Positions 5,707-62,104 of a stretch of 64,000 bases of DNA are shown here, piece after piece. Numbering within the stretch: position 1 is the first letter of the stretch; every line of letters begins with the position of its first letter. Made by a program: the position numbers and the translations under genes. The notes beneath the pieces were generated by a model, which saw nothing but the letters and a program-made list of their open reading frames with translations, was not told the origin of the DNA and did no database searches. This stretch comes from Octopus vulgaris (taxonomy: Eukaryota): assembly GCA_951406725.2 (NCBI GenBank), contig OX597820.1:2418001-2482000 (forward strand). The letters run 5' to 3'.

Positions 5707-6052
5707 TACAGTTCTATATTCAAGAGATGAGGAATTATTTACATTATTTACATTTGACAGATATTTGTCCTCATCTTGTTTGTTGTTTACACAACGTTTC
5801 GGCTTTTATACCCTCCAGCCTTCATCAGGCATATGGCATAGTGGTTAAGAGCTTGGGCTACTAACCCCAAGATTCCGAGTTCGATTCCAGGAAGTGACCT
5901 GAATAATAATAATAACAACATCAAAAAATACTGTAGGAATGAGAACCCAAGTTCAAGATTTCGCCAAGACACCTGAAGGAGGCTGGAGGGTAAATAAACC
6001 GAAATGCCGTGTCAACAAGATGAGGACAAATATCCGTCAAATATAAATAATG
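5707..6052 (+). mobile_element. tRNA-cassette plus hammerhead element, copy 1 (inverted tail 5707-5830)
   Basis: A box TGGCATAGTGG and B box GTTCGATTCC within 5829-5899. Degenerate hammerhead at 5968-6012. The inverted tail holds an intact-core hammerhead on the minus strand (5788-5833). Confidence 0.75.
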
Positions 6053-12778: not shown

Positions 12779-15246
12779 CTAGAAATCTGTTAAGGAATGG
12801 AATCAAATAAAAGAAGTGAAACATACCAAAGTGGTAAAACCAGATTCAGTGCTACCCAGGGCAGCCCTTGTCTCTGCCCCCCATAAAAGTGTCACCCAAA
12901 GCAGACACCCCACTACCACCACCACCACTCAACTACACAACTGATGTAACAGTGACAAGTTATTAAATGTGTGTCATCTGATGACCGTAGTTAAAATATT
13001 TTGGCTTCATCAGGAACTAAACAACAACAACAAAATTTGAATAAACTGCTGAAATTCATAAAATAATGAAATAAAAATCATTGACATGCCATTTGAACGT
13101 TAAAAGCACCATCCGAGCGTGATCGTTGCCAGGACCGTTGATTGGCTCCCGTGCCAGTGACGCGTAAAAAGCAGCATTCAAGCATGATCACTGCCAGCGT
13201 CGCCTTACTGGCACATGTCCTCAGTCAATCCGTCCAACCCATGACAGCATGGAAAGCGGACATTAAACGACAATGATGATGATGATGATGAATATTACGC
13301 AAGAAAAATAGATAAGTATATTCTTTCATAAAGAGAACTGAGGTTATAAGAAATATCACTGTAAACAATTTTACAATATGAAATGTCATTTTAAATGACC
13401 TCATCTTGTCTTTTAATGGTTGATGTTGAATAAAGATTTGTCAATTTAATGTTTTTATAAAACCTTTGAACATTTTTTTCTTTTTTATTATTTGGAAAAA
13501 TTCTGATATATGTCTTATCATTGTCCGTACAGAGAATTTGTCTGTGAATATTCTTAAATGGCAAAGTTTCTTGTTGTGACTTTTCCAGACACAGAGAATT
13601 GGTTTGTATTGGATTATCCTTATCATTGTCATTTAACACCCATGTTCCTTACTGACATGGATTGGATGGTTTGACAAGGATTCTGTGGTACAGTTCTATA
13701 TGCCCACGGGCATATGGTGTAGTGGTTAAGAGTGCAGGCTACTAACCCCAAGATTCCGAGTTCGATTCCAAGCAGTGACCTGAATCATCATTATCATCAT
13801 CGTTTAACGTCTGCTTTCCATGCTAGCATGGGTTGGACGATTTTGACTGAAGGCTGGAGAACCAGATGGCTGCACCAGGCTCCAATCTTGATCTGGCAGT
13901 GTTTCTACAGCTGGATGCCCTTCCTAACGCCAACCACTCCGAGAGTGTAGTGGGTGCTTTTTACATGCCACCAGCACGGGGGCCAGTCAGGTAGTACTGG
14001 CAATGACTTCACTCGAATCTTTTTACACATGCCACTGGCACAGGTGCCAGTAAGGCGACACTGGTAACAATCATACTCGAATGGTGCCTTTTACATGCCA
14101 CCTGCACGGAAGCCAGTTTGCCGCTCTGGCAACGATCATGCTCGGGTGGTGCTCTTAGCACCCTACTAGCACAGGTACAAGTGCTAGTAAGGCAATGCTG
14201 GTAACAATCACACTCGAACGGTGCCTTTTATGTGCCACTGGCACGGAAGCCAGTTATCCCCTCTGTCAACGATCACACACGTATGGTGCTCTTTGGACCC
14301 CACTAGCACAGATGCCAGTCATCGATTTTGATTTTGATTTCACTTGCCATAACAGGTCTTCGCAAGCAGAGTTTAGTGTCCAAAGAAGGAAAAGGTACGC
14401 ATAAGTGGGCTGGTTACGCCCCTGGCATAGGTTATGGTCTCATTTGGCTTGCCGGGTCTTCTTAAGCACAAATAATAATAATAATAACAAACATCAAAAA
14501 ATAGCTTAAGAATGAGAACCGAGGTTTGAAATTTCCCCAAGACCCCTGATGAAGGCTGGAGGGTATATCAGCCAAAACGTGTTAACAACAAACAAGATGA
14601 GGACAAATATCCGTCAAATGTAAATAATGTAAAGGATTCAGTGGGTTCAAGGATTTCAATGTGCTCCAGGGCCTGCTTTGGCATGGCTTCTATAGCTGGA
14701 TGCCCTTCAGTAAATAATTCATTTCTTAGAGAAACAAATTCAGAAATACAGTGAGCAAATGACAGAGAAGATCTTATCCCAATTATACTTTTCCTGGAGG
14801 CATCTATCTTCTCTTTAACTTGCTTCAGTCACTGGACTGTGGCCATACTGGAGCACTGCCCTGAAGGGTTTTAGTCAAACAAATTGACTAGGATACTAAT
14901 GTTATTTTTTGTAATAAATCAACACCGGTGATCAAGTGGCACAAAGACACAGCCAATTGTTTCCTCAAGCAAATTCCCTGGCAGGGGCATTGGTTGGGGC
15001 TGGAATAGAAGAGACTGACCTAAAACACTGCACAATGGGAAGCCAACTTCATAGTCAAACAACCACACTTTGATTCAGTTTATAGTCAATGAATCAAAAT
15101 AGAATCGCTAAAGAAAATGCTATGATGTCCGATAAGAGTCGAATGACACATCTGCTCCCTGTAAAAAACTATTGGCCATTATCATTCAATGTCGGCAAAA
15201 TGGAACAGGATGAAAAGAGAACCAAACCATTTCTTTGAAAGGATAC
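12779..15246 (-). other. U12-type (minor spliceosome) GT-AG intron 6 of PEX16
   Basis: 5' splice site GTATCCTTTC at 15246-15237. Branch site TTCCTTAAC at 12797-12789, 10 nt before the exon start. No long polypyrimidine tract. Confidence 0.93.
13689..14631 (+). mobile_element. tRNA-cassette plus hammerhead element, copy 2, split by a SINE insertion (about 13784-14470)
   Basis: Inverted tail TACAGTTCTATA at 13689-13700, tRNA-like 13709-13780, CTGATGAAGGCTG..CAGCCAAAACGT at 14546-14580. Confidence 0.75.
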
Positions 15247-22255: not shown

Positions 22256-22842
22256 TAATAATAAGAAGAAGAAGAATCCTTTCTATTAAAGGCACAAGGC
22301 CTGAAATTTTGTGGGAGGGGATTAGTCAATTACATCAACCCCAGTGTGTAACTGGTACTTTATTTATCGACTCCAAAAGGATGAAACGCAAAGTCAACCT
22401 CAGTAGAATAATAATAATAATAATAATAATCCTTTCTACTATAGGCACAAAGCCTGATATTTTTGGGGGGAGGATACTAGTCAATAACATTGACCCCAGT
22501 CCTCAACTGGTATTTATTTCACCGACCCCACCCCAAAAAGATTAAAGGCAAGGTTTTATTCTTTAAATGAAGGGAAGAGGGTACAAATGCTTGTACACAG
22601 AGTATGATATTGTAAAGTAGTGACACACACGTATTGAATGTGGAGGATGTGTGGCAAGCATGCCTCACTGGATGAGTACTGAATGATGGAGAAGAAAAGT
22701 GGTAATAAGAGGAATCAGATGGAGTCTGCAAGGGAAAAGACGGAGCTGGAATGGGTATAGGATGCTTATGAAGAACGGGGGTTGGATACAGAAGTGCCGA
22801 ATACTGCAAGTGGAAAATTAATTAAAACAAGGTAGGGCAATT

Positions 22843-23120
22843 CAGTTCTATATTTGAGAGATGAGGAATTAGGGACATTATTTACATTTGATGGATATTT
22901 GTCCTCATCTGGTTTGCTAGGACACAACAACCTCCTAAGCAGACCGAGTGTAGATATGAGCAGCATATGGAAACCGGTATTAAGGAAGGATAGGAGAATA
23001 TTAGATTTATAAGCCCTAAAATTCACTCCATAATTACCCACGGGCATATGGGGTAGTGGTTAAGAGTGCGAGCTACTAACCCCAAGATCCCGAGTTTGAT
23101 CAATAATCATAATAATAACA
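22843..23120 (+). mobile_element. tRNA-cassette element, copy 3 (3'-truncated, inverted tail 22843-22929)
   Basis: Same inverted tail, longest 5' extension of the four copies, tRNA-like 23043-23101. Confidence 0.7.
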
Positions 23121-35017: not shown

Positions 35018-35693
35018 TGACCTCATGTATGGCTTCCTTAAAGCCAACTCTACTGGAGACCTTTTCTTCTATGTCCTTTTGAGAGATTTTACAAAAGTAT
35101 TGTTTTCCTTCGTCTGTAAAGCTTTCATTATGTCAAGCTTACAAACTTCCTCGCAAAACTCCATCTCGACCTCAGCTCCTATCAGATTGCACTTCGATGG
35201 CCAGATGTGAAGGAGGTTTTCTCTCCTGTACCCCAGGGTTCAGCTCTATTCTCCATGGTAGTTATCATTAAAAGACATTTGATTAGAGCTGACCACAGAC
35301 AGAACAACTGGCTGATATTTTTGCACACATCAAGAATATGAAATTGATTTTGTAATACCAGATATCATCATCATTGTCTAAACTTCCACTTTTCCATGCT
35401 TGCATGGATCGGATGAAATTTGTTGAGGCAAATTTTTACAGCTGATGCCTTTCTTATGACCAACCTTCATCTGTTTCTAAGTAAAGTGATGTTTCCCCAA
35501 GACTAGACATGTTTTCACAAAAGACTGGAAACGAAAGACACTGCTTCCTTGATGGTGACACTTGTTTACAACCATCATAGGAATCAAGGCAAGCACACAC
35601 ACACACACACACACAAAGGGTTCCTTCTAGTTTCTGTCTGCCAGATCCACTGGTAATAAGCAGAGCAATTCAGCTGTAAAAAAACCATTCCAG

Positions 35694-36095
35694 AAAATGG
35701 AAGCAACCTTAGGTAGAAATGTCTTTTTAATCATGTTTGGGGTGATATCAGTGACAAGTAAAATGGAAGCAACCTTAGGTAGAAATGTCTTTTTAATCAT
35801 GTTTGGGGTGATATCAGTGACAGGTAAAATGGAAGCAACCTTAGGTAGAAATGTCTTTTTAATCATGTTTGGGGTGATATCAGTGACAGGTAAAATGGAA
35901 GCAACCTTAGGTAGAAATGTCTTTTTAATCATGTTTGGGGTGATATCAGTGACAGGTAAAATGGAAGCAAACTTAGGTAGAAATGTCTTTTTAATCATGT
36001 TTGGGGTGATATCAGTGACAGGTAAAATGGAAGCAACCTTAGGTAGAAATGTCTTTTTAATCATGTTTGGGGTGATATCAGTGACAGGTAAAATG
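35694..36095. repeat. 66-bp minisatellite, 6 near-identical copies
   Basis: Unit AAAATGGAAGCAACCTTAGGTAGAAATGTCTTTTTAATCATGTTTGGGGTGATATCAGTGACAGGT. Only two substitutions seen. Confidence 0.97.
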
Positions 36096-37191
36096 CACCC
36101 ACTTCACAAAATTGGTTGATGATAGAAATGGCATCTAGTCTAAACATTACCTGCCCAGCAGAATTGGCCGGGAGGGGGGGGGGGTCCCCCCACCCTGTGT
36201 ATAGGAAGTGCTGTGGTGAGTGACAGGGACACTGAGATCTGGCTAATCTCTGTCAACAAAGAAACATGGTGAGGGTGATTTCTATGTTAAACAAAATTCA
36301 TTCATATATATATCTGCTTCATTTCAACTCTCCATTCTAAATAGTATTAATGAACAGCATAATCATCCTCTTCCTCCTCCTCCTCATCATCATCATCATC
36401 GTTTAACATCCACTTTCCATGCTGGCATGGTTTGGACAGTTTGACATGGAGCTATCCAGACTCCAGCTGTCTGTTTTGGTCTGGTCTCTACAGGCTGGAT
36501 GCCTTTCCTAATGCCAACCACTTAACAGTGTGTTGGGTGCTTTTTACGTGCCACCTGATTGTGACAATTTTTTTTCTCTAATAAAACCCTATTACTTGAA
36601 TGCTTTATGTCTTTGACAATGATTCTTTCGGCTCCCACCAGCAGATTTTTAGTATTTTACAGAGATGTTATGTAGATTGGGTTTGAATCCAAGCTGTGTC
36701 CTCTTGCGATACATCTGCTTATTAAAGTATTCCAATCCATAAGTTATATTTGTGTGAGGTAGGCATAAGAGTTATGTGTAATGGAGAATAAATTATATCA
36801 AAACTTTTTCCAGTCTCCTGTTGTGGCGGAGGCAAAGTGGCTGAGTTCCTTCAGAGCATTGGGCCTCACAGAGACAATGACCAAGACCTTTGGCATTATG
36901 TCATACTGGAGAAGAAGACCCATCAAGCTGAGCAAAATCGCAATCATGGCAGATACTGGTGTCACACAAATTGGCACCCATTACACTGAGAGTGGTTGGC
37001 TTTAGGAAGGACATCCAGCTGCAGAAAATCATACCAAGTCAGACTGGAGTCTGGTGCAGCCTTCCAGCATGGGCAACAGACATTAAATGATGATGATGTA
37101 TCAAATTAAATACATAACCAAAAGCTCTAATAGTTTCATGCTATTATGATACTTGATCAGGCATATTTATAAAATACACCATGTATCTTAA

Positions 37192-43596: not shown

Positions 43597-44059
43597 TTAA
43601 GAGCTGAATCTAAGGAACAAATAGGCTCAGATGTGGCTGTGTGGTTAAGAAGTTTACTTCACAGCCATATGGTTTTGGGTTCAGTCCCACTGCATGACAC
43701 CTTGGATAAGTGTCTTCTACTATAACCCCCAGCTGAGCAAAGCCTTGTGAGTGGATTTGGTAGATGAAAACTGAAAGAAGTCTTGACATCCTGTGATAGT
43801 CGTAAACATGTGTCACTGTCCTCTAAGCAGTGTCAATCATTTCCAGTATTCTGTGGAAACGTCTGGCCATGGGGAAATATTACCTTACTTGGAAACAGGT
43901 GAGGGTTGGCTACAGATATCCTGTCACAGAAAATCCACCTTGATAGACCCCAACTGACCAACGCAAGCATGGAAAAGTGGACATTAAAAAACAGTGATGA
44001 TCTAGACTGTGTAAATATTAAAAGATGTAGTTAAAAGTTCAAAAACATTTATAGTTTTG

Positions 44060-44453
44060 CATTATTTACATTTGACAGATGACTTAGTTATCATTAAGTT
44101 AGGGTTAGGAACATAATTTGTGACTAAAGAAGGATAGGAAAATATTAGATTTATAAGCCCTAAAATTCACTCCATAATTGCCCATGGGCATATGATGCAG
44201 TGGTTAAGAGCACGGGCTACTAACCCCAAGATTCCGAGTTTGATTCCAGGCAGTGGCCTGAAGAACAATTATAATAACATTGAAAAATACCTTAGGAATG
44301 AGAGCCCAAGTTTGAAATTTTCCCAAGACACCTGATGAAGGCCAGAGGGTATATCAGCTGAAATGTTGTGTTAAAAACAAACAAGATGAGGACAAATATC
44401 TGTCGAATGTAAATAATGTACATAATTCCTCATCTCTTAAATATAGAACTGTA
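44060..44453 (+). mobile_element. tRNA-cassette plus hammerhead element, copy 4 (most complete)
   Basis: Inverted-tail remnant 44060-44080, 5' extension shared with copy 3, tRNA-like 44187-44258, hammerhead 44327-44372, tail ending TATAGAACTGTA. Confidence 0.78.
44327..44372 (+). ncRNA. Minimal type-I hammerhead ribozyme motif
   Basis: GACAC-CTGATGA-A-GGC...GCT-GAAATGTT-GTGTT. Stem I is GACAC/GTGTT and the conserved core boxes are present. Confidence 0.6.
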
Positions 44454-50620: not shown

Positions 50621-50663
<43 letters not shown>

Positions 50664-50995
50664 GACAGGCTTCTTTCGGTTTCCATCTACCAAATCCACT
50701 CACAAGGCTTTGGTTGGCCCGAGGATATAGTAGAAGATACTTGCCCAAGATGCCATGTGGTTGACAAGCAAGCTACTTACCACACATCCACTCCATAAAT
50801 TTTTTGATTTTTATTTAAGGCTTTGTTCGGCCCAAGGCTATAGTAGAAGACACATGCGCAAGGTGCTACACAGTGGGACTGAACCTGGAACAATGTGATT
50901 GGTTAGCAAGCTACTTATCACACAGCCAAACTTTTATTTATTTCAGTCATTGGACTGCAACTAAGCTGGGGAACTGCCGTGAAGAGTTTTTAAGT

Positions 50996-52383: not shown

Positions 52384-55156
52384 CAAAAGACGAAGACAGA
52401 TGCATGAACAACAAGCAAGTGTATTAGTTTGGTGCTCTTCAACAGAAAGGAATAAGAGAAAATAAACAGAGAGAGAATGAAAAAACCCACGCACACACAA
52501 CCCTTTGGTCAGCCCATGAATGTTGTAGAAAACACTTGCCCGGAGTATCATGCAGTGGAACTGAACCCTGAACCATGTGGTTGGAAAGTAAGCTTTTTAA
52601 CCACACAGCCACACCTCTATACCTTTATATGTATGTAATGGCTGTGTGGTTAGGGAGCTTGCTTCATAGCTATATGGTTTCGGGTTCAGTCCCACTGTGT
52701 GGCACTTTGGGTAGGTGTCTTTCACTATAGCCCCGAGCTGACCGGAGCTTTGTGATTGAATTCGGTAGGTGGAAGTTACTGCCGTGTGTGTATATGTACG
52801 TGTAGGTGCTTGTGCCTCTCCGAAAGAGAGAGAGAGTGCGCACATATCTGTGTCTGTGTGTATTTGTTAACTTTGCAGCCGAAACGCTTTATGTTAGTAA
52901 TACTGCTACTCCCCCACACATCCGACCTCCAGTGATTTGGAGAAGGTACTCTTTGCCATTTCTTTCCAAAGTTTAATAAAATAGATACCAAGAATATATA
53001 ATAGTTTATTCAATCAACAGGTGCTGTGATAAGCTTTCAGCAAACAACGGAAATTTACTCTACTTATTTCGTCTGATTTCTCATTTCACACTCCATTTTC
53101 GCCTCTCTTATCTATAGGTGATCTACTACCGATATATCATCTTTCGTAATCTTATCTACCGCAACACACTACATACTAAATTCCTTCACCAACACATCTA
53201 CCATTAACATGCTCGCACATGAATACACACACACACACCACATGTTTATAGTGAAACCGTGCAATGTTTTACAAACCAGGCCTACTTAGAAGAAACCTAA
53301 TTCGTTGCGGTTTGAGCTAAAGTCTAACATTTCTCTCTCGCATTTTTGATTTTATTCTATTTCCTTATTTCCACCATCCACCCCCGCCCACCCCCGCTGA
53401 TGCTTCTATTTCCCATATTTCCACATTCTCATTCCTCTTCTGCTTTCTCTCTGTCGTTTAACCCTTCACTTCCTCTCCCTCCCTCCCCGTCTTTTCAACT
53501 CTTTCCTGCGTTTTTCTCTGCACTTGACTACCTCCACAGAGCGAAGGAGTTAGAGTTGCTACCATATCTGGCAGACAAAACAGTCCCAAATCACATGAAT
53601 GGCAAACAGAAACTGCAGACTGCTCCATGTGATGGTGGTGGTGGTGGTGGTGGTGTTAATAGTAGTATTAGTAGTAGTAATAGTGGTAGTATTAATAGTA
53701 GTAGTAGTAGTATTAATAGCAGTAGTGGTAGTAGCTTTCATCCTCTCAGTCATGTGACTGTGGCCATGCTGGAGCACCACCTTAAAGGGTATTAGTTGAA
53801 GAAATTGACCCCTGGGGGCTTATCCTTTGTAAGCCTAGTATTTATTCCATCAGCCTTTTTGCCAAACTGCTGGGTTACGGGGACATAAACACACCAGCAT
53901 CAGTTGTCAAGCAATGGTGGTGGGGACAAAGACACACACATACGCACAAATATATACATACATATATATATATATATACAACAGGCTTCTTCCAGTTTCC
54001 ATCTACCAAATCCACTCACAACACTTTGGTTGACCCGAGGCTACAGTAGAAGACACTTGCTCAAGTTACCACGCAGTGGGACTGAACCCAGAACCATGTG
54101 ATTGGGAAGCAAGCTTCTTACCACACAGCCATGCCTGCACCTATAATTTAATAATGTTTTTACTCTATCTAGTGAAACAGCTGTAGAGAACAACAAAATT
54201 ATGAATTATATGAGAAATTTATGTTTTTCAGCTTTTTAGTTTTCTAAGTTGGAAGTTCCAGATGCGATTCTTATATTTTAACCATTACAGAATACATTTA
54301 ACTTTGATGAATGTGCAAAACATGGTATTATTTTTGCACATAGTTCTTATGTTATTTTGTATTGCAGATTTTTTTGAATTTTCTCAAACACTTGCATTGG
54401 ATTGCATTTTCATGATTCATCAGATATGCTAGAATTTGTCAAATTTCTGCAGGCTTACTCATTTAGATAAAGGAAGGAACAATCTTTAATTGTTTTTATT
54501 TGAATCCGTCTTAACATTTCATAATTAATCATTTTAAAGTTTGCCATGAGTTTGGGGACCACAGACTTGTTGAAGAAACATAAAACTCTACGTATTTCTA
54601 ACACTGAATTGGGCTCTTCTGTGATTTTTATTTTAGCTCACATAAACAAACATTGTGTATGTATTGTATATATGTATGTATTGTTGTGTGTGTGGTGGGG
54701 TATATGTGTTTATATATATATATGTGTTTATATATATACACATACAAACATATATCATCATCATTTAACGTCCGCTTTCCATGCTAGCATGACAAACATA
54801 TACATATATATATATATATATACAAATATATATATATACACAAACATATACATATATATATATATACACTGAGAGATAGATAGATAGATAAATTCTACTC
54901 CCTCTGGCCTGGTTCCTCCTCATGTAGTAAAGGACTGAATCTACCCTGACCATTTGACCATTTATAAAAGCTATTATTCTAGTAATCTTTTCATATTTTG
55001 ATATGGCTTAAGTGAGCAACATTTTGCATAAGAAATGAAATTCTCGTTTTTTTATTACATAATTACCTGAAACGCGCATATTAAATGCATTCAAAATATC
55101 ATTACTTGATTTGGTTTCCTTTTTATACATTATATATGTATGTACATATGTGTGTG

Positions 55157-60427: not shown

Positions 60428-60795
60428 TTACTCTTTTACTTGTTTCAGTCATTTGACTGCAGCCATGCTGGAGCATCGCCTTTAGTCGAGCAAATCAACC
60501 CCAGGACTTATTTTTTGTAAGCCTAGTACTTATTCTATCGGTCTCTTTTGCCGAACAGCTAAGTTACGGGGATGCAAACACACCAGCATCGGTTGTCAAG
60601 CGATGTTGGGGGGACAAACACACACACACATATATATACGACAGGCTTCTTTCAGTTTCCGTCTACCGAATCCACTCACAAGGCTTTGGTCGGCCTGAGG
60701 GTATAGCAGAAGAAACTTGCCCAAGGTGCCACGCAGTGGGACTGAACCTGGAACCATGTGTTTCGTAAGCAAGTTACTTACCACGCAGCCACTCC
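60428..60795 (-). mobile_element. Near-full-length tRNA-derived SINE, family A (other copies about 1-196, 7465-7845, 45470-45850, 50420-50795, 53735-54140, 59013-59320)
   Basis: Head GGAGTGGCTG.GTGGTAAG..GGTTCAGTCCCACTGCGTGGCACCTTGGGCAAG, an internal microsatellite, and tail ..GACTGAAACAAGTAAAAGAG. Confidence 0.85.
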
Positions 60796-62104
60796 TTAGT
60801 GGAATTTTGTCTGCCTTTACATTTTGAGTTCAAATTCTGCTGGGTTCAATAAAATGACCAGTCGAGCACTGAGGTCAATGTAATTGACTAGCCTCTTCCC
60901 CTAAAATTTCAGGCCTTGTGCCTACAGTAGAAAGTATTATTATTATTATTATTTTGTCTTTTACTAAAGCAGCAATCTGGTAGAATTGGTAGCATGCCAG
61001 GCAAAATGCTTCGTGGCATTTTGTAGGTCTGTATGTTGAGTTCAAATTCTACTGAGGCCAACTTTGTCTTTCATCCTTTCAGGGTTGATAAAATAAGTAC
61101 CAGCTCCCTCCCATGCCAGTGGCACGTAAAAAAAAAAGCACCATTCGAGCGAGGTCGTTGCCAGTGCTGCTGGACTGGATCCTGTGCAGGTGGCAGCACG
61201 TAAAAAGCACCAGTTGAGTGTGGCTGATGCCATTACTGCCTGATTGGCCCTCATGCCAGTGGCACATAAAAGCACCCACTACACTCTCAGAGTGGTTGGC
61301 GTTAGGAAGAGCATCCAGCTGTAGAAACTTTGCCAGAATCAGATTGGAGCATGGTGCAGCCTTCTGGCTCGCCAATCCTCAGTCAAACCGTCCAACCCAT
61401 GCCAGCATGGAAAGCGGACATTAAACGATGATGATGATGATGATTAAATACTGGGTGGGTGGGTGTGGGGGGGTCAATGTAATTGACTTGCATCATCCCC
61501 TGAAATTGCTGGCCTTGTCCTGAAATTTGAGACCATTATTATGAGTCCATCAGGAAGCAAACTGGCAGAATCGTTAGTCTGCAAGACAAAATGCTTTGTA
61601 GCTTTTCTTCTGACTTTACATTCGAATTTGAACACCACCAAGGTTGACTTAGCCTTTTATCCTTCAGCGTTGATAAAATACCTATCAGTTGAGCATGAAG
61701 ATTGATGTAATCGACTTTATCCCTGCCCCCCCACCCCCCAAAAAAAATTTGCTGGCCTTGTGCCAAAATTTGAAACCATTATTGTTATTTTACCTTATTT
61801 CAATCGTTGGACTGCAACCATCCTGGTGTAACTCCTTGAGGGGTTTAGTCAAAAAACAATCAACCCCAGTTCTTGTGTTTTGGTTTGGTTTTTTTTTTTT
61901 TTTTTTTGGTTTTTTTAAGTCTGGTACTTATTCTGTCAGTTCTCTTACCAAACTGCTAAGTTATGGAGATATAAACAAACCAACATCAGCTGTCAAGCTG
62001 TTGGCAGAGGGCTTGACAAACATAAACACAAGCACACTCATAGCTTTATATATAGATATATATATATATATATACATACACACACACATGCACATAGGTA
62101 TGTA

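Follow-up and report, generated by a model that had tools for sequence, protein, structure and literature searches.

The promoters and RNA ends of Penelope-like elements (PLEs) are poorly known, and several described systems share parts of the anatomy reported here for a PLE of Octopus vulgaris, pieces of which lie in a stretch of 64,000 nucleotides of contig OX597820.1 (positions 2,418,001 to 2,482,000, forward strand; hereafter the window, in whose numbering plain positions are given). In the portions of the sources available to us, here and below, Poseidon of Anolis carolinensis (PMC11167929) resembles the octopus element in having a reverse transcriptase (RT) followed by a C-terminal GIY-YIG endonuclease (EN), tandem units, an open reading frame (ORF) starting in the pseudo-long terminal repeat (pLTR) by a hammerhead ribozyme, two 3' ends that define an optional tail, and AT-rich flanks; the octopus pLTR differs in opening with a tRNA-derived block with A and B boxes, at whose start the copies pile up. 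The octopus motif, compared by sequence, shows no structural difference from the minimal hammerheads of metazoan PLEs (PMC4209133). The Schistosoma SM-alpha and Sj-alpha repeats, which resemble short interspersed elements (SINEs), also place an RNA polymerase III (Pol III)-type promoter before a hammerhead (PMC6765202), but they are non-coding tandem repeats with canonical hammerheads, whereas the octopus sequence is part of a coding PLE, occurs head-to-head and carries a minimal hammerhead. A Pol III promoter derived from a small RNA lies in the terminal repeat of the TRIMp3 elements Helenus, Ajax and Cassandra (PMC10886601) as well; these, however, are non-autonomous long terminal repeat (LTR) elements with a primer binding site, a polypurine tract and target-site duplications, and their autonomous partners are expected to use RNA polymerase II (Pol II). 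Animal non-LTR retrozymes (bioRxiv 10.64898/2026.07.22.740005) are likewise hammerhead repeats from PLE pLTRs, but as described there they form head-to-tail hammerhead arrays without a tRNA block, whereas the octopus copies are mainly solo or head-to-head.

Four repeat copies in the window (copies 1 to 4, at 5707-6052, 13689-14631, 22843-23120 and 44060-44453; pairwise BLAST E values 1e-14 to 1e-62) were located where an earlier, sequence-only reading had placed them. That reading took them for a non-autonomous family linked to Penelope, with a possible RT/GIY-YIG ORF further 5'. Both the link and the ORF were borne out, and the family was not: the repeats are decayed pLTR pieces of a protein-coding PLE and not a stand-alone family, the cassette being the pLTR plus the first codons of the coding element, with short and long copies alike in sequence and divergence. 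Most of the 29 other loci found with copy 4 extend 5' in common sequence, for up to 1.1 kb, and this sequence encodes, by translation, the RT thumb and a GIY-YIG-like end. A search with the RT region gave 25 loci, 12 of which reach the cassette start in the forward direction about 1.1 kb downstream. At the other end, the pLTR of one locus (L201) runs into the ORF N-terminus, and the pLTR 3' end lies directly upstream in 26 of the 30 loci found with that N-terminus. Because the cassette adjoins the ORF stop at one end and the N-terminus of the ORF at the other, it is the pLTR of a coding PLE, and the 26 loci together with the pLTR-ORF continuity define a tandem unit of 2,651 nt with a frame of 835 codons. 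The same continuity upholds the claim of the sequence-only reading that the tRNA-derived block is internal to a longer unit.

The RT and GIY-YIG frame begins in the pLTR and reads through the hammerhead. On a majority-rule yardstick made from 48 aligned copies (q positions; q2158 and q2433 correspond to 44180 and 44453 of copy 4), the ATG lies 120 nt after the G at q2158 (G2158) and the stop 23 nt before the next G2158. A protein 62% identical over RT-EN (P0005) shares the N-terminus of the frame, likewise read through the hammerhead (TPDDG...PKRCVNN). The Pfam RT domain PF00078 was found on two of four natural fragments (E 9e-12); the endonuclease fragment, C-terminal in position, had no Pfam match, and its nearest Atlas clusters were GIY-YIG (score 0.97, the family being present on 15-27% of members). 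Relatives at E<=1e-30 numbered 94, with RT and further common Pfam domains, and the nearest, P0001-P0006, are 62-76% identical; a PDB search gave weak RT matches only, and viral contigs yielded no relative. The features of EN-bearing PLEs are present, namely a PLE-type RT ORF, a C-terminal GIY-YIG, tandem units with pLTRs, an inverted 5' copy with a tail at one end, and a pLTR hammerhead. Its motifs and its likeness to Anolis Poseidon suggest that the element may belong to the Penelope/Poseidon clade, the quick-method tree containing no named PLE references.

In a genome of 2.8 Gb and 227 contigs, 80 evenly spaced 10-kb stretches from six contigs contained 16 insertions in 800 kb, which extrapolates to about 56,000 genome-wide; a 28-nt hammerhead word occurs exactly 3,631 times, and its reversed control not once. 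Non-CpG divergence is about 4.5%. We scored 125 insertions that had not been selected by 5' extent (random stretches, pattern-picked loci and the window, duplicate loci dropped), and found 76 head-to-head, 46 in a single orientation and three of other layouts. Both ends could be scored in 61 of the 76, and here 57 have one tail, three none and one two; the inverted tails of the sequence-only reading were borne out. This one-tail head-to-head layout is a PLE signature (PMC8557442; PMC11167929). The 3' ends form two clusters, one at q2397-2406 that a 9-nt repeat blurs and one at q2431-2437, and in Anolis Poseidon two internal RT starts account for such ends (PMC11167929). Head-to-tail hammerhead arrays, the retrozyme feature, were not seen among these mostly head-to-head or single copies, arrays elsewhere in the genome not having been sought.

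The 5' ends are much less scattered than the variable 5' truncation of the sequence-only reading implied: lengths do differ, but a single boundary is where most copies stop. Among the 98 insertions that reach the block, 35 stop at q2157-2162 (24 of them at G2158), 24 at q2163-2175 and 16 at q2176-2200, so that 59 stop within q2157-2175. In these counts alignment starts at q2145-2157 were reassigned to G2158, because 22 of 23 such arms carry upstream letters foreign to the element; two letters ahead of the G, 19 of these 22 have the A expected of a fold-back where the element has T. The stop rate per arm is 0.104/nt at q2157-2162 and 0.0025-0.0065 just upstream, and as per-arm rates may count a palindromic junction twice, the figures per insertion are safer. 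Exact 19-mers gave the same picture genome-wide, with 5,491 occurrences inside the block against 960 and 728 just upstream, or about 20,600, 2,400 and 3,100 arms after correction for match rates of 28/105, 13/33 and 7/30. Since most copies begin at or just inside the block start, the element likely used a Pol III promoter.

On a profile built from 38 tRNA-like genes of this genome the block itself reaches 20.8 bits (E 6e-5), 10 shuffles giving no more than 8.3, and with its A and B boxes it forms a tRNA-derived head of the SINE type. Resemblance to tRNA-Ile(AAT) had been suggested by eye; among 11 isotype/anticodon classes from this genome that class is not the best match (Arg(TCG) 59.5, Arg(TCT) 55.5, Ala 54.5, Ile(AAT) 52.5), and with scores so close and 45-47 identities for each class no single donor is picked out. 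ARAGORN, run on the element, made an opposite-strand call only, at a very relaxed threshold. Matches of the tRNA-Ile(AAT) type form clusters in the genome, at C4:51993268-52042309 (27) and C8:22979457-23067818 (9) of assembly G000, among the 51 matches listed. A distant tandem PLE with a period of 2,791 nt (L347:2757-3030) has, between ORF stop and hammerhead and in the same order, A- and B-like boxes, CCA and (AAT)n; with two runs of four T (T4) per unit, a tRNA profile score of 6.7 bits, which is within the shuffle range, and no Rfam match, it is a lead only.

By sequence and predicted pairing the pLTR motif is a minimal type I hammerhead, its self-cleavage being putative. The published minimal PLE type has CUGANGA, an unpaired base after position 9, G10.1-C11.1, a palindromic ACGU for stem III and a stem I of 5 bp (PMC4209133), and every one of these features is present, which agrees with the minimal hammerhead of the sequence-only reading. 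Within the family the motif decays neutrally, mainly at CpG; the sole common non-CpG core substitution falls on the free position 7 (12 of 86 arms), and a short deletion affects the cut-site triplet in 13-16 of 86. Because the copies decay neutrally from one source, a genome-wide alignment of the family cannot show the stem covariation expected of it, which was seen across related PLE families: 79 metagenome loci of related PLEs, searched by core letters alone, yielded 39 motifs, and in the 16 with the same GAAACGU-H end stem II pairs at 62 of 64 positions and stem I at 39 of 48, with differing letters. The near-intact copy L158 folds stems I and II (z -2.3), while the window copies are damaged. 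Rfam, with its hammerhead models, detected neither this motif nor a tRNA in the window or in L158, the microRNA rows being (TA)n/(CA)n repeats. At the cut site of the hammerhead 5' ends are not enriched (10 of 94 arm starts lie nearby, p 0.09, several being internal deletions). The hammerhead of Anolis Poseidon cuts only with protein and is dispensable for insertion (PMC11167929), and 235 Rfam hammerheads are reported in squid, with no link to PLEs in the available part of that source (PMC6962438).

Placing these results into a model, we find it reasonably probable that the copies descend from a once-autonomous PLE, the tRNA-derived block of its pLTR being its likely Pol III promoter, and that its own RT likely started internally and copied back to the RNA end. 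Pol III would start the RNA at G2158, 13 nt before the A box, and the pile-up at the boundary would correspond to the RNA 5' end. By likeness to Anolis Poseidon, the RT of the element probably initiated beyond the hammerhead, at two internal sites that lie about 240 or 275 nt 3' of G2158; the complementary DNA would then run off the RNA 5' end and fold back or jump template, leaving inverted and tandem junctions. An RT start in the 3' pLTR would give long copies, and one in the 5' pLTR of the coding RNA would give the same short product as copying the short RNA of a solo pLTR. The short copies may thus come from the 5' pLTR of coding RNAs, from short solo-pLTR RNAs in trans or from both, equal sequence and age fitting either. 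The hammerhead would be a dimer- or protein-assisted ribozyme that insertion can do without.

The sense strand of the 2,651-nt unit contains no TTTT, and at the 13 TTT checked the neighbouring letters have good column support. Expected numbers of T4 runs are 2.9 by codon permutation (p 0.023), 5.0 by third-position draw (p 0.003) and 4.3 under a mononucleotide null (p 0.009); with the same T content, a control PLE of another lineage has 10 such runs over 2,433 nt, and all six other ORF families of at least 600 codons have 3 to 16. This absence is suggestive only. As for RNA, sequencing reads (RNA-seq) on locus L317, where the element lies on the minus strand, cover the pLTR and the end of the ORF at a depth of 100-750 per direction and the N-terminal part of the ORF at 0-18, and in each run 333-401 reads pass, close to the boundary G, out of the element and into inverted A-box letters; these exit reads show the same junction in transcribed copies, not a promoter. 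Among the indexed sequencing runs, none of RNA is listed as containing the element. The Pol III promoter of the sequence-only reading is probably right as a prediction from sequence, although RNA-seq gave no start signal.

Several observations weigh against a Pol III-driven autonomous element. No full-length intact natural copy was among the loci fetched, 23 of the 98 block-reaching insertions extend past the boundary, and among copies bearing the N-terminus two of five block-reaching upstream pLTRs run beyond it. The boundary lies in a small GCCC-NN-GGGC palindrome, which could itself favour fold-back. Under a dinucleotide null 2.6 T4 runs are expected and their absence is not significant (p 0.08), and two of 24 related PLE ORFs of at least 400 codons lack T4 as well. 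In three unstranded RNA-seq runs, a weak test, neither the G nor the hammerhead site showed a pile-up of read starts or ends. Translation would have to be unusual for an uncapped Pol III RNA 2.9 kb long, and autonomous elements are stated to require Pol II (PMC10886601). An autonomous coding retrotransposon transcribed wholly by Pol III from a captured tRNA promoter, with one terminator-free 2.9-kb RNA as both messenger and template and RT starts in its 5' pLTR yielding tens of thousands of SINE-like copies, is a version that we hold only tentatively and think doubtful.

A non-autonomous, SINE-like lineage (tRNA head, hammerhead and tail) spreading in trans from masters of its own, beside a coding element with a separate Pol II transcript, would account for the roughly 7 to 8 times more arms over the tRNA block than just upstream; solo pLTRs hold everything that a Pol III template needs, and ragged Pol III 3' ends would be tolerable with internal RT starts. 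Against it, 71 short and 31 long arms have no diagnostic variant, the low-p columns being gaps and scattered changes in long arms, with divergence equal (4.5% in short and 4.4% in long copies); the T4 deficit, moreover, spans the ORF too. We regard this explanation as unlikely. An apparent B-box difference between long and short arms vanished on exclusion of the loci that had been chosen for their similarity to copy 4.

Slightly less probable again is that the block represents the dead head of a SINE, captured in the 3' untranslated region, and that the pile-up is an RT-stop or fold-back hotspot at the palindrome on long Pol II templates. The palindrome and the fold-back letters are observed, stop rates already climb across q2163-2175, and one null leaves the T4 deficit at p 0.08. 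The sharpest stop, on the other hand, falls on the far (5') side of the hairpin, which the RT would by then have opened, and many G junctions join unrelated positions or template jumps (for example L157, L252, L253, L294 and L295). Pol III starts show a spacing to the A box like that of the boundary G, which also speaks for a promoter rather than a captured head. An ordinary Pol II promoter in the pLTR, with incidental A and B boxes, would match the promoters that PLE pLTRs typically carry for the downstream unit (PMC6765202) and would give a capped RNA free of the translation problem, but it leaves a start exactly before intact A and B boxes and a unit devoid of TTTT unexplained, and we judge it improbable.

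Turning to the anatomy of the window copies (Table 1), all four have the A box, the CTACTAA loop and the B box, and copies 1, 2 and 4, unlike copy 3, have the hammerhead core halves, in agreement with the sequence-only reading; no sense-strand copy in the window has an intact hammerhead, and ARAGORN found no tRNA there. In copies 1-3 the inverted piece said to begin every copy does adjoin the forward arm; that of copy 4 measures 25 nt and is set apart from the forward arm by about 44 nt of another repeat. The 5' lengths upstream of the tRNA block vary as claimed, but with other values, now about 0, 7, 127 and 61 nt in copies 1-4, and in two copies this upstream stretch is the end of the PLE reading frame. 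The 12 nt that precede the boundary G, around 44168-44195, look like the first bases of the block folded back, perhaps a scar of its capture. Copy 2 owes its length to an unrelated repeat, about 670 nt long, within its (AAT)n spacer; the insert belongs to an abundant (ATC)n-headed repeat (D5/D7/D11) with 11 copies in the window, and the PLE spacer is often broken by insertions.

Table 1. Positions of the PLE pieces in the window
Feature	Positions	Strand	Remarks
Copy 1, inverted arm bearing tail and hammerhead core	5707..5829	-	
Copy 1, forward arm from tRNA-block start to inner end, without tail	5828..6052	+	
Copy 2, inverted tail end	13689..13700	-	12 nt
Copy 2, forward arm from boundary G, tRNA block	13701..13788	+	boundary G at 13702
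Copy 2, unrelated repeat in (AAT)n spacer	13789..14460	.	not element sequence
Copy 2, remaining pLTR, without tail	14471..14631	+	3' core of hammerhead damaged
Copy 3, inverted arm with tail	22839..22916	-	
Copy 3, forward arm	22915..23100	+	31 C-terminal codons and TAA (22917-23012, translating to LGHNNLLSRPSVDMSSIWKPVLRKDRRILDL and stop); tRNA block broken off in B box
Copy 4, short inverted piece	44056..44080	-	from inner 3' end of pLTR
Copy 4, last 9 codons and TAA of PLE RT/GIY-YIG frame	44127..44156	+	translates to KKDRKILDL and stop
Copy 4, G at commonest start of genome-wide copies	44180	+	putative RNA start, 13 nt before A box
Copy 4, tRNA-derived block	44186..44258	+	A box 44193-44203, loop 44217-44223, B box 44238-44247; decay in both boxes
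Copy 4, (AAT)n spacer	44259..44280	+	
Copy 4, ATG	44298..44300	+	probable start codon of the 835-codon frame when the pLTR precedes an element body
Copy 4, minimal type I hammerhead	44327..44372	+	stem I, CTGATGA at 44332, unpaired A, stem II, GAAATGTT at 44360; damage in palindrome and stem II
Copy 4, 3' part of pLTR	44373..44453	+	inner end near 44417-44426, optional tail to 44453

Other repeats were met on the way. A second abundant short repeat (D6, D12, D14), by eye a tRNA-derived SINE, lies at 12-188, 50644-50933, 53960-54136 and 60620-60796, among other places, and 35628-36155 is a tandem array with a 66-nt unit whose inner copies are 99% alike. The control PLE (L336:22-2454 reversed; L320-L344) is young, with near-identical copies, a frame of 811 codons and 1,734 candidates in the genome. 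Five random stretches (L062, L079, L086, L104 and L122) carry frames of 600-1,040 codons that look like those of other retroelements.

The PLE, its tail and its hammerhead belong to what is already known, and the pLTR opening with a tRNA-derived A- and B-box block is new. The literature searched, which left most subscription journals, Repbase and Dfam outside, yielded no paper on a PLE whose pLTR carries a tRNA-type promoter. Octopus is said to harbour tRNA-derived SINEs, those of Ohshima and Okada 1994, reportedly named OK, OR1 and OR2, the last two reportedly of arginine tRNA origin. The octopus pLTR may be among the SINEs of that work. A supplement with 190 PLE consensus families (PMC13282606) does not mention ribozymes in the part available. 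A repeat that annotation tools would label a tRNA SINE can be the pLTR of a coding PLE. Tens of thousands of fossil copies would mark one RNA start and two RT starts, supporting the internal-initiation model from genomic data, and a Pol III promoter would be unusual for a self-mobilising retrotransposon. If Pol III truly made the coding RNA, this would contradict the need of autonomous retroelements for Pol II and bring the translation of uncapped RNA into question. The arrangement suggests an origin for promoter-plus-hammerhead repeats such as SM-alpha, and end-to-end transcription by Pol III, if true, would be a direct route from a PLE to a SINE.
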